Of a DNA stretch of 64,000 bases, positions 25,742-28,279 are shown one piece after another (within the stretch, counting starts at the first letter, position 1; every line of letters starts with the position of its first letter). The stretch comes from a virus (lineage: Duplodnaviria; Heunggongvirae; Uroviricota; Caudoviricetes). The position numbers were made by a program, and so were the translations under genes. The notes beneath the pieces are model-generated. The model was not told where the DNA came from. It saw only the letters and a list, made by a program, of their open reading frames with translations, and did not search any database. The stretch is from IMG/VR virus record IMGVR_UViG_3300042349_000626. One strand, given 5' to 3'.

Positions 25742-25770
25742 TAAATACCCCTAGTGATAGGGGTTTTTTA
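25742..25770 (+). terminator. Late promoter TAAATA adjoining a terminator
   Basis: ACCCCTA-gtga-TAGGGGT followed by a T tract. Confidence 0.7.
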
Positions 25771-25772
25771 TT

Positions 25773-26108
25773 ATGAAAGTACAATCAGCAAAAGCGAAAG
25801 GTCGTCGCCTTCAACAATGGGTTCGTGATAAACTTATCGAAATGCTTGATGTTCATCCTGAAGATATTGAAAGTAGATCCATGGGTGCTGGTGGCGAAGA
25901 TTTAATTATGGCACGAGCTGCCAGACAAAAGTTTCCCCATAGCATTGAATGTAAAAATGTGGAGAAGTTAAATGTTTGGGATGCTTACGAGCAAGCTCAA
26001 GCAAACTCAGGTGATTATGAACCAGTTCTTGTTATGAAAAAGAATGGCAAAAAACCATTAGTCGTACTAGATGCCGAGTATTATATTCAACTTCATAGAG
26101 AAAAATAA
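25773..26108 (+). CDS. PD-(D/E)XK nuclease, Holliday junction resolvase-like
   Basis: SAKAKGRRLQQWVRD, GEDL, SIECKN. Confidence 0.7.
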   Translation: MKVQSAKAKGRRLQQWVRDKLIEMLDVHPEDIESRSMGAGGEDLIMARAARQKFPHSIECKNVEKLNVWDAYEQAQANSGDYEPVLVMKKNGKKPLVVLDAEYYIQLHREK

Positions 26109-26812
26109 TGAAAATTAATTTACTTAACTTCTTCAAACATTTTGATGAGAAGAATCCCAACCACGTAAAAGCAGCTGAAATACTTTTACGTGCCTTAGAA
26201 AAATCAGCACCAGAACAACTAGAAGATACTTCTGAATGGGTAAAAACATTTAGAACATCTGCTCAAAAACAAGCAACTAATATTCTAGAAAATTTCCCTT
26301 GGTTCCCTCAAACAGATAACTATAGAGATGCTCAGAGAACTTGTAATAGTTCTGCCTGTGCTATGTGCTTAGAGTATTTAAAACCAGGCACACTCAAAGG
26401 ACCTAAGGGTGATGATGCTTATGTACAAAAAGTATTTGCTACTGGAGACACTACAGATCACACAGTTCAAACCAAAGTATTGATGTCGTATGGCATTAAT
26501 TCTGCTTTTAGATATAACTTAACATTTGCTGACCTAGACCGAGAACTTTCTGCCAAACGTCCCATAGTAATTGGCATCCTTCACAGGGGGTCTCTGGGTG
26601 CCCCTACAGGAGGCCATATGGTAGTTGTGATGGGGAAGACCCCAGCAGGTGATTACATCGTTCACGACCCATACGGAAGCCTTAACGATGGATATACTGG
26701 CCCCGTGACCAACGGCATAGGTGCTGTGTACAAACGAGGCGATCTTGTTCGTAGATGGTGTCCAAAAGGTAACGATGGGTGGGGTAGAGTTTTTGATGCT
26801 GTAAAAAAGTAG
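26108..26812 (+). CDS. Peptidase C39-like protein (N-terminal part of a putative frameshift endolysin)
   Basis: TCNSSACAM (Cys), GGHMVVV (His), VHDPYG (Asp); ends GTA AAA AAG TAG. Confidence 0.8.
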   Translation: MKINLLNFFKHFDEKNPNHVKAAEILLRALEKSAPEQLEDTSEWVKTFRTSAQKQATNILENFPWFPQTDNYRDAQRTCNSSACAMCLEYLKPGTLKGPKGDDAYVQKVFATGDTTDHTVQTKVLMSYGINSAFRYNLTFADLDRELSAKRPIVIGILHRGSLGAPTGGHMVVVMGKTPAGDYIVHDPYGSLNDGYTGPVTNGIGAVYKRGDLVRRWCPKGNDGWGRVFDAVKK

Positions 26813-27288
26813 AAAGTGTTGCTTCCGCTATTCCTCAACAGGGAGTAGCACTTATTAAAGAGTTTGAGGGTTGTCATTTAAAATCATATCCAGATCCTAA
26901 AACAGGTGCTGCTCCTATCACTATAGGTTGGGGCAGTACTCGTAGACCAGATGGATCTACTTTTATGCTAGGACAATTTATTACTCAACAGCAAGCAGAT
27001 GATTATTTGATGTATGATGTCGAGCGTAGATTTTTACCACAATTAGCCAAAATACCATACTGGGAGGAAATGAATGACAATCAAAGGGGGGCTTTACTTT
27101 GCTTTGCTTACAATCTTGGTGCAGATTTTTATGGTCATCCTGACTTCAATACTATTACAAGGACATTAAAAAATAAAGAATGGTCTAAAGTACCCGATGC
27201 TCTTTATCTTTATAGAAATCCTGGTAGTAATGTAGAGGCAGGATTAGCAAGAAGAAGAAAAGCAGAAGGTAAACTTTGGATTAGTTAG
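26803..27288 (+). CDS. GH24 phage lysozyme domain, probably reached by -1 frameshifting
   Basis: Frame opens after TGA 26794-26796 and reads KKVESVASAIPQQGVALIKEFEGCHLKSYPDP...TIGWG...ALLCFAYNLG...GLARRRKAE; first ATG (26965) is downstream of the catalytic E/D/T. Confidence 0.85.
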   Translation, partial: KKVESVASAIPQQGVALIKEFEGCHLKSYPDPKTGAAPITIGWGSTRRPDGSTFMLGQFITQQQADDYLMYDVERRFLPQLAKIPYWEEMNDNQRGALLCFAYNLGADFYGHPDFNTITRTLKNKEWSKVPDALYLYRNPGSNVEAGLARRRKAEGKLWIS

Positions 27289-27521
27289 TCTTCCATCTTT
27301 GCTTTTAATCCAAGCAATGCTGTAAAGATAGTAAACAAAGCACTATACCCTTTGTCTATAGAGTTCTCACACTTTATAGATGGGGGGTTTTTTAATATGC
27401 CTTTTGCATTGGCACTTTCAATTGATCCAGGAACCATGTAGTTACAATTAACAAAAGTAATTCCAACATATCCTACAGTACAAACAACAATGATAATGAT
27501 TAGTTTGTCTAGTATTTTCAT
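27285..27521 (-). CDS. Small protein with two hydrophobic segments
   Basis: LIIIIVVCTVGYVGITFV and YSALFTIFTALLGL. Confidence 0.55.
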   Translation of the reverse strand: MKILDKLIIIIVVCTVGYVGITFVNCNYMVPGSIESANAKGILKNPPSIKCENSIDKGYSALFTIFTALLGLKAKMED

Positions 27522-27709
27522 CTTCCTTCTTGTTTATGAATCCAAGTTTTCAACTCGTGTAAATATTGCCTAAGTTGATCTGCTTTTTGTAGATGCCAAA
27601 TCTCGCCACTCTTGAAATATTCTTGAGTGTGATTATCAATTGCTTTTAATGTGTTATGTATAGGAGCATTCCATGGCTCCCTAATCGGAGTGTTCCACTC
27701 TCTTGGCAT
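27518..27709 (-). CDS. Small conserved hypothetical protein
   Basis: MPREWNTPIREPWNAPIH...; minus-strand TAAATA at 27733-27738. Confidence 0.65.
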   Translation of the reverse strand: MPREWNTPIREPWNAPIHNTLKAIDNHTQEYFKSGEIWHLQKADQLRQYLHELKTWIHKQEGR

Positions 27710-27916: not shown

Positions 27917-28279
27917 ATGCTTTTTAAAACCCTTTCAATTTTTGCCATTGCCGCTGTAGGACTAGCACCCCTTCAAGTAAAGGCAGCGAGCGGATGTTCC
28001 CTCGCCTCTCATTATGGAATCGGTGACGGATATCACGGGCAGACAACTGCCAATGGCGAAAGATACAATGCTTATGGAAAATCGGTAGCACATAAGTGGT
28101 TGCCATTCGGAACAAGGTTAAGAGTGACTAATCAACGAAATGGTAAATCAGTGATTGTGCGTGTGAATGATCGTGGTCCCTATGTAGGTGGTAGAGATCT
28201 AGATTTGTCTTATGGAGCATTTTCCACAATTGCTTCTCCAAGTCAAGGTGTAGCTAGCATCTGTTATTCACGGGTCTGA
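27917..28279 (+). CDS. RlpA-like DPBB lytic transglycosylase with a signal peptide
   Basis: ASHYG...TANGERY...VAHKWLPFGTRLRVTN...VRVNDRGPY...DLDLS. Confidence 0.88.
   Translation: MLFKTLSIFAIAAVGLAPLQVKAASGCSLASHYGIGDGYHGQTTANGERYNAYGKSVAHKWLPFGTRLRVTNQRNGKSVIVRVNDRGPYVGGRDLDLSYGAFSTIASPSQGVASICYSRV

Follow-up and report, generated by a model that had tools for sequence, protein, structure and literature searches.

How can a complete lysozyme be made from a reading frame that offers no start codon? The question is raised by a locus in a 64,000-nucleotide (nt) stretch of viral DNA (IMG/VR record IMGVR_UViG_3300042349_000626, here called the window), which comes from a T4-like cyanophage, with nrdA, nrdB, psbA and a T4-type RNase H gene among the flanking genes and Kyanoviridae as the closest named relatives. 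At this locus the open reading frame (ORF) of a C39-like peptidase is followed, one base out of register, by an intact GH24 lysozyme frame, and an earlier note, made from the sequence letters alone, had proposed that ribosomes pass from the one to the other by recoding. We likewise favour a -1 programmed ribosomal frameshift of the dnaX/IS3 type, to which we assign a probability of about 0.8. The elements on which the argument turns are the following.

26108 to 26812, plus strand: zero-frame ORF encoding an N-terminal helical module and a C39-like papain-fold cysteine peptidase, 234 amino acids, 26.0 kDa.
26108 to 26260, plus strand: the N-terminal module, approximately residues 1-50, a homologue of the extension that stand-alone lysozymes of related phages carry at the N-terminus.
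26803 to 26809, plus strand: slippery heptamer A_AAA_AAG, in the X_XXY_YYZ register of the peptidase frame.
26810 to 26812, plus strand: zero-frame TAG stop directly 3' of the heptamer, a possible 'shifty stop' stimulator.
26809 to 27288, plus strand: -1 frame extension, a linker (VESVASA) and the complete GH24 lysozyme, 159 codons plus stop.
26866 to 26868, plus strand: catalytic Glu codon (in FEG, 26863-26871), upstream of the first ATG.
26814-26826 pairing with 26841-26853, plus strand: 13 base-pair (bp) hairpin with three G-U pairs, 4 nt past the heptamer, a putative 3' frameshift stimulator.
26827-26835 pairing with 26841-26849, plus strand: alternative 9-bp hairpin using the same 3' arm, -12.6 kcal/mol.

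The -1 frame is closed by a TGA at 26794-26796, open from 26797, and runs to 27288. Its product matches the Pfam family PF00959 (Phage_lysozyme) over the entire profile (positions 1-125 of 125, E-value 2.5e-21) and contains the lysozyme motifs LIKEFEG, YPD and TIGWG. Upstream of the catalytic Glu this frame has no ATG, GTG or TTG; the first ATG is at 26965, and a protein begun there would therefore lack the catalytic residue. Alignments to stand-alone GH24 lysozymes of solved structure begin at residue 12-14 of the translated -1 frame, i.e. from about position 26830, which together with the position of the Glu codon means that an active lysozyme requires entry into the frame between 26797 and about 26830, an interval itself without ATG, GTG or TTG. 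This lysozyme is the sole copy detected by tblastn in the window. The products computed for the locus are the peptidase listed above and a peptidase-lysozyme fusion of 393 amino acids (44.0 kDa). The layout described in the earlier note, namely the end of the peptidase ORF with its heptamer and stop, the opening of the -1 frame, a complete lysozyme with no start before the Glu, the 13-bp hairpin with its G-U pairs and 4-nt spacer, the competing use of 26827-26835, and products of 234 and about 393 amino acids (26 and 44 kDa), was recovered in full and at the same coordinates. It is most likely that the lysozyme is made only by ribosomes slipping back one base at the end of the peptidase gene, no other standard route being open to an active form.

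The upstream ORF matches PF13529 (Peptidase_C39_2) in Pfam at 41.8 bits, against a cut-off of 24, and residues C79, C84 and H170 are invariant in the peptidase alignment. Its structure model (predicted local distance difference test score, pLDDT, 71) matches C39 peptidase domains weakly, with template modelling (TM) scores of 0.4-0.6, and predicts the approximately 50-residue N-terminal module to be helical; a sequence search of the peptidase against solved structures returned no match. The company the domain keeps, i.e. fusion to lysozyme and the phrog annotation 'endolysin', suggests that it acts on peptidoglycan. The 405 positions of phrog_3617 are tiled by the two window frames in turn, positions 1-234 by the peptidase and 242-404 by the -1 frame, which is the signature expected of one protein read from two frames.

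In the proposed mechanism the ribosome would reach the 3' end of the peptidase ORF, GTA AAA AAG TAG, where most would stop at TAG 26810 and release the 234-residue N-module and peptidase. A fraction would slip back one base on the heptamer, either through tandem slippage of two tRNA-Lys or through slippage in the P site with TAG waiting in the A site, and the hairpin downstream would pause the ribosome and so favour the slip. Slipped ribosomes would then read GTA GAA ..., adding a short linker and the complete GH24 lysozyme to yield the 393-residue fusion with the junction ...VFDAVKK-VESVASAIPQQG.... We infer from the sequence that slippage occurs, and likewise its efficiency. Both products would act on the cell wall at lysis and, as the earlier note suggested, would be made in a fixed ratio, the dose of lysozyme being set by recoding.

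If this mechanism operates it should have left its mark on related phages, and we surveyed the corresponding junctions found by tblastn on phage records, by two IMG/VR scans and in eight annotated records, 168 loci in all with 107 distinct junctions. Comparison was made at the protein level; a nucleotide search of phage records matched only a short stretch of S-PM2. The distinct junctions fall into five arrangements.

No overlapping start, lysozyme in the -1 frame: 57 junctions; heptamer A_AAA_AAG in 56 and T_TTT_TTT in 1.
ATGA or GTGA overlapping start: 12 junctions; heptamer kept in 9, changed to A7 in 1, lost in 2.
Lysozyme with its own start and an N-terminal extension: 7 junctions; heptamer in none.
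In-frame fusion: 11 junctions; A_AAA_AAG in 4, A_AAA_AAA in 2, none in 5.
Peptidase alone: 20 junctions.

Wherever the lysozyme lies directly downstream and out of frame it occupies the -1 frame (76 of 76 junctions). Among the 87 junctions that have a lysozyme next to the peptidase, 57 are of this kind and start-less as well, and 31 of these 57 have no ATG, GTG or TTG whatsoever before the catalytic Glu. Relatives are thus not uniformly in-frame fusions or equipped with a start of their own, as the earlier note had allowed they might be. Every one of the 57 start-less junctions has a slippery heptamer in register, and the stop adjoins it directly in 51 (43 TAG, 8 TAA). The codon preceding Lys-Lys varies in the amino acid it specifies (Val, Ala, Thr, Glu), while its third base is A in all 56 A_AAA_AAG junctions. 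Linkers come in nine different lengths with the frame preserved in all, and are open in the -1 frame in 57/57 cases versus 23/57 in the +1 frame. Where the lysozyme has its own start, the heptamer and putative hairpin tend to be absent, as is often seen in these sequences. Three of the phages with peptidase alone carry a lysozyme elsewhere in the genome, in the one examined as a 210-amino-acid gene.

All start-less junctions have a stem beginning 2-8 nt past the heptamer, with folding energies of -9 to -29 kcal/mol. The stems form 18 sequence families, the variable linker supplying the 5' arm and the codons of a conserved G-V-x-L-I the 3' arm. Paired with its own 3' arm the 5' arm reaches a mean of -17.1 kcal/mol, versus -9.1 kcal/mol when the 3' arm is taken from another sequence (permutation p < 1e-4). 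One stem family, comprising 18 distinct sequences, has pairing in 98.4% of its cells and compensatory changes, i.e. changes on both sides, at 4 of its 14 pairs. None of 500 shuffles matches this, and controls slid along the same sequences pair at 30-48%. Hairpins are weak or small at the junctions with an overlapping start of their own, and among in-frame fusions a strong hairpin is kept where the heptamer is present and none is found where it is absent. The predicted downstream structure is in this sense backed by covariation across the family.

Further candidate elements were considered. A pseudoknot of 7 bp could form between the loop of the hairpin (26832-26838) and the FEG codons (26864-26870), and the group of L028 has a 9-bp equivalent. 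We do not retain this element: across the family own pairings are barely better than those with other sequences (-8.3 vs -7.25 kcal/mol), and its conservation is uninformative because both sides are coding-constrained. An upstream Shine-Dalgarno-like stimulator was also rejected, the G-rich GWGR codons ending approximately 17 nt before the heptamer, too far away, and being coding-constrained. An Rfam search, which includes dnaX and other curated frameshift elements, gave no match to these, the one match being at chance level to an unrelated small RNA model.

The decoding machinery that such a heptamer would meet can be judged from stand-in hosts. The phage psbA (38733-39812) is 92-94% identical to Cyanobium and Synechococcus genes, which suggests a picocyanobacterial host, possibly of fresh or brackish water. 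Both Synechococcus MIT S9451 (43 tRNAs) and Cyanobium N.Huapi 1H5 (39 tRNAs) have one tRNA-Lys(UUU) and no tRNA-Lys(CUU), and none of the five phage tRNAs in the window is for Lys. The same reliance on a sole tRNA-Lys(UUU) has been given as the reason why A_AAA_AAG is so exceptionally shifty in E. coli (PMC5009743).

Named relatives and natural variants show what has become of the junction elsewhere. In the cultured model cyanophage S-PM2 (L001, 2181-2678) the peptidase ends GCA AAA AAG TAA ahead of a start-less -1 frame lysozyme, which is annotated as a 72-amino-acid 'putative lysin' beginning after the catalytic Glu; the offset between the frames is identical in two independent S-PM2 records. 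S-CAM7 (L085, 2193-2717), also a cultured model phage, has the same start-less layout and a 'lysin' annotation similarly truncated to begin after the catalytic Glu, with T_TTT_TTT, in a run of eight T, and a hairpin of its own at the same place. An independent contig (L005), 99% identical, has the same A6 junction as the window. The earlier note had allowed for an assembly error in the run of A's; the agreement of L005 and both S-PM2 records, and A6 at 56 distinct junctions, excludes this. Two A7 variants (L119 and L124-127), with seven A's in the run, encode in-frame fusions joined by a linker of the same sort, so that the type of fusion predicted does occur naturally. Further in-frame fusions are found in L093-098 and in ACG-2014f (L003, 2212-2250), whose 405-residue fusion keeps GCA AAA AAG and an 8-bp hairpin 5 nt downstream; here a ribosome slipping into the -1 frame would run into TGA one codon later and release the peptidase alone, an arrangement that is seen in a single lineage and is therefore no more than a lead. 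In ACG-2014f and the A7 variants taken together a -1 slip would end after 1-12 codons. In the cultured phage S-CREM1 (L004, 1006-2187) the domains are fused in reverse order, lysozyme first and then N-module and peptidase, in 393 residues, and the domain arrangement of the lysin is therefore very fluid within the family.

Several observations weigh against frameshifting at this locus. AAAAAAG occurs 38 times in the window versus 38.2 expected, so that the heptamer alone is what chance would provide, and the window hairpin, taken singly, is only moderately unusual (-18.0 kcal/mol, z -2.36, with 6 of 200 shuffles folding as well). Its 4-nt spacer is at the short end of the range that works in E. 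coli. RNAalifold run on all 57 start-less junctions gave no consensus structure, since the register of the stem differs between junctions, and was replaced by the permutation test of own versus other arms and the pair count in a single stem family given above. The surveyed junctions are mutually related and their counts overstate the number of independent events; the genomes typed for tRNA-Lys are stand-ins for the host of the phage. Of the 57 start-less junctions, all but one (56) offer near-cognate start codons (ATT, ATC, ATA, CTG) in the -1 frame. What is beyond chance, as judged by these comparisons, is the position of heptamer and hairpin and their conservation in relatives.

The near-cognate codons lead to an alternative that we regard as unlikely, namely that the lysozyme initiates independently at a non-canonical codon (e.g. 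ATT 26830 or ATT 26854), or by re-initiation after TAG, to give free lysozyme and no fusion. A GGAG-like stretch does precede an in-frame ATT in the window and in S-PM2, and relatives such as S-SRM01 start their lysozyme by an ATGA overlap. However, the position of the near-cognate codon in the linkers is not constant, many are ATC, and the GGAG-like stretch is missing from several stem families. Independent initiation gives no reason why the -1 frame should be constant over nine linker lengths, nor why open linkers and heptamers should each be found in 57/57 junctions, and its product would lack the N-module that related stand-alone lysozymes bear. Initiation at an in-frame ATT, which the earlier note had raised as a competing explanation, keeps a small probability on this evidence, and would leave the constant frame, the open linker, the heptamer and the hairpin unexplained.

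Transcriptional slippage is also improbable. Here the polymerase would add one A within A6 (or one U at the T8 run of S-CAM7), such that a fraction of mRNAs encode the in-frame fusion and the protein is identical to that from ribosomal frameshifting. The A7 genomic variants are natural counterparts of such transcripts, and S-CAM7, with a run long enough to make slippage plausible, is the best case for it. Work in E. coli indicates, however, that bacterial RNA polymerase needs more than a run as short as A6 to slip efficiently. In 56 distinct junctions a G invariably comes after the sixth A, with no case of a longer run, and a covarying hairpin 2-8 nt downstream is a hallmark of ribosomal, not polymerase, slippage. 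Polymerase slippage does have a precedent in Thermus dnaX, but Thermus has two tRNA-Lys (PMC5009743), unlike the stand-in hosts with their sole tRNA-Lys(UUU). That the locus is a broken gene or a sequence error, i.e. an in-frame fusion decaying through a one-base deletion in A7 with no lysozyme made, is scarcely credible, given that, for all the in-frame and A7 fusions among relatives (ACG-2014f, L093-098, L119, L124-127), the lysozyme frame is intact and conserved in 57 distinct junctions (60-80% amino-acid identity, no stops, the same one-base offset), independent assemblies and the two S-PM2 records agree, and the window holds no second lysozyme.

Ribosomal frameshifting would also place the N-terminal module on the lysozyme. 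Profile-profile comparison relates the module of the peptidase to the N-terminal extension of stand-alone lysozymes (hhalign probability 94.8%, E-value 5e-8), and it is common to the window (26108-26260), L109 (2187-2330) and L170 (1354-1986); the stand-alone 210-residue lysozyme mentioned above carries it too. BLASTP of the peptidase N-terminus against the lysozyme extension gave no match, the relation being visible only at the profile level, and the module has no Pfam family. Each catalytic domain tends, in these sequences, to come with an N-module, and a lysozyme of the frameshift type would obtain one only via the fusion. We suggest, tentatively and with more doubt than conviction, that the heptamer-hairpin cassette is a two-output device, kept whichever frame the lysozyme is in, and that each catalytic domain may need the N-module. 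In A6 phages the zero frame would then give peptidase and the slip the fusion, while zero-frame reading in ACG-2014f and the A7 variants would give the fusion and the slip peptidase alone, as in dnaX, and one-base changes would flip the ratio of the two products. A need of each domain for the module would explain why the lysozyme is either fused or has an N-module copy of its own.

The locus lies in a compact group of genes, in which further features were identified as follows.

25747 to 25764, plus strand: terminator-like hairpin, after nrdB and 5' of the operon.
25773 to 26108, plus strand: PDDEXK-type nuclease gene, the S-PM2 counterpart of which is annotated as a RusA-like resolvase.
27347 to 27388, plus strand: terminator-like hairpin with a T run, approximately 60 nt past the lysozyme stop.

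The stop of the PDDEXK gene overlaps the peptidase ATG by one shared base (TAATG), and the two are therefore probably co-translated. No promoter-like site was found on the plus strand between peptidase and lysozyme; terminator-like hairpins flank the nuclease, peptidase and lysozyme genes on both sides, and the three probably form one transcription unit. On the minus strand two small ORFs of 78 and 63 amino acids (27285-27709) converge on the lysozyme stop, and similar small minus-strand genes lie 3' of the lysozyme in S-PM2 and S-SRM01. The 78-residue product matches no PHROG and contains two hydrophobic stretches; it may be a membrane protein resembling a holin. Just downstream, at 27917-28279, is an RlpA-type lipoprotein (phrog_7930, 'lipoprotein precursor'), found likewise in S-PM2 and S-SZBM1, which possibly belongs to the same cell-wall gene cluster as the lysin.

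T4-like cyanophages are a major cause of death among marine and freshwater picocyanobacteria, and to our knowledge they lack the T4 lysis genes. Frameshifting at this locus, if true, would provide a concrete model of how they make and dose their wall-degrading enzymes, and would account for the truncated 'lysin' annotations of S-PM2 and S-CAM7, both of which leave out the catalytic Glu. It would correct the annotation of many Kyanoviridae genomes, from which the fusion is at present missing, in a layout shared by dozens of uncultured relatives, and would add endolysins to the genes that use programmed frameshifting.

The closest parallel is tau/gamma production from E. coli dnaX, which has the same A_AAA_AAG heptamer with a stem-loop a few nt downstream, the same reliance on a sole tRNA-Lys(UUU), as judged from the stand-in hosts, and two products from one gene. 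It differs in that the dnaX shift ends the protein early whereas the shift in the window would add a whole enzyme domain, and in that the window has a stop directly after the heptamer and no upstream Shine-Dalgarno-like stimulator was found there; ACG-2014f and the A7 variants, in which the shift would give the short product, are the dnaX-like mirror form. In the IS3 family (IS911, IS150) A_AAA_AAG lies near the end of orfA and is stimulated by a 3' structure. The -1 shift there fuses an upstream ORF to a downstream ORF, orfB, that has no efficient start of its own, as would be the case here, although the products are transposases and not the lysis enzymes of a lytic T4-like phage. The tail assembly chaperones G/GT of lambda-like phages are likewise made as a short and a long product through a conserved -1 frameshift in double-stranded DNA phages; their slip site is G_GGA_AAG, with no strong hairpin, and the product is a structural chaperone, so that slip site, hairpin strength and product class all differ from those of the window. 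In-frame lysins such as those of ACG-2014f and S-CREM1 (phrog_3617, phrog_10051) have the same two catalytic domains and N-module in one polypeptide, joined by ordinary decoding, where the joint in the window requires a change of frame.

A phage lysis function that is produced only when ribosomes depart from the frame of a preceding gene is known from MS2, where frameshifting within the coat gene underlies expression of the lysis gene (Kastelein 1982, cited in PMC5009743). As that citing account has it, rare shifts lead there to termination and to re-initiation at the start of the L gene, with neither a fusion protein nor a slippery cassette. In the literature searched, including the 2016 recoding review (PMC5009743), we found no report of frameshifting in an endolysin or in a cyanophage lysis gene. 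The mechanism proposed for the window is itself the classic recoding of dnaX and the IS3 family; its use in an endolysin gene would, as far as that search goes, be new.

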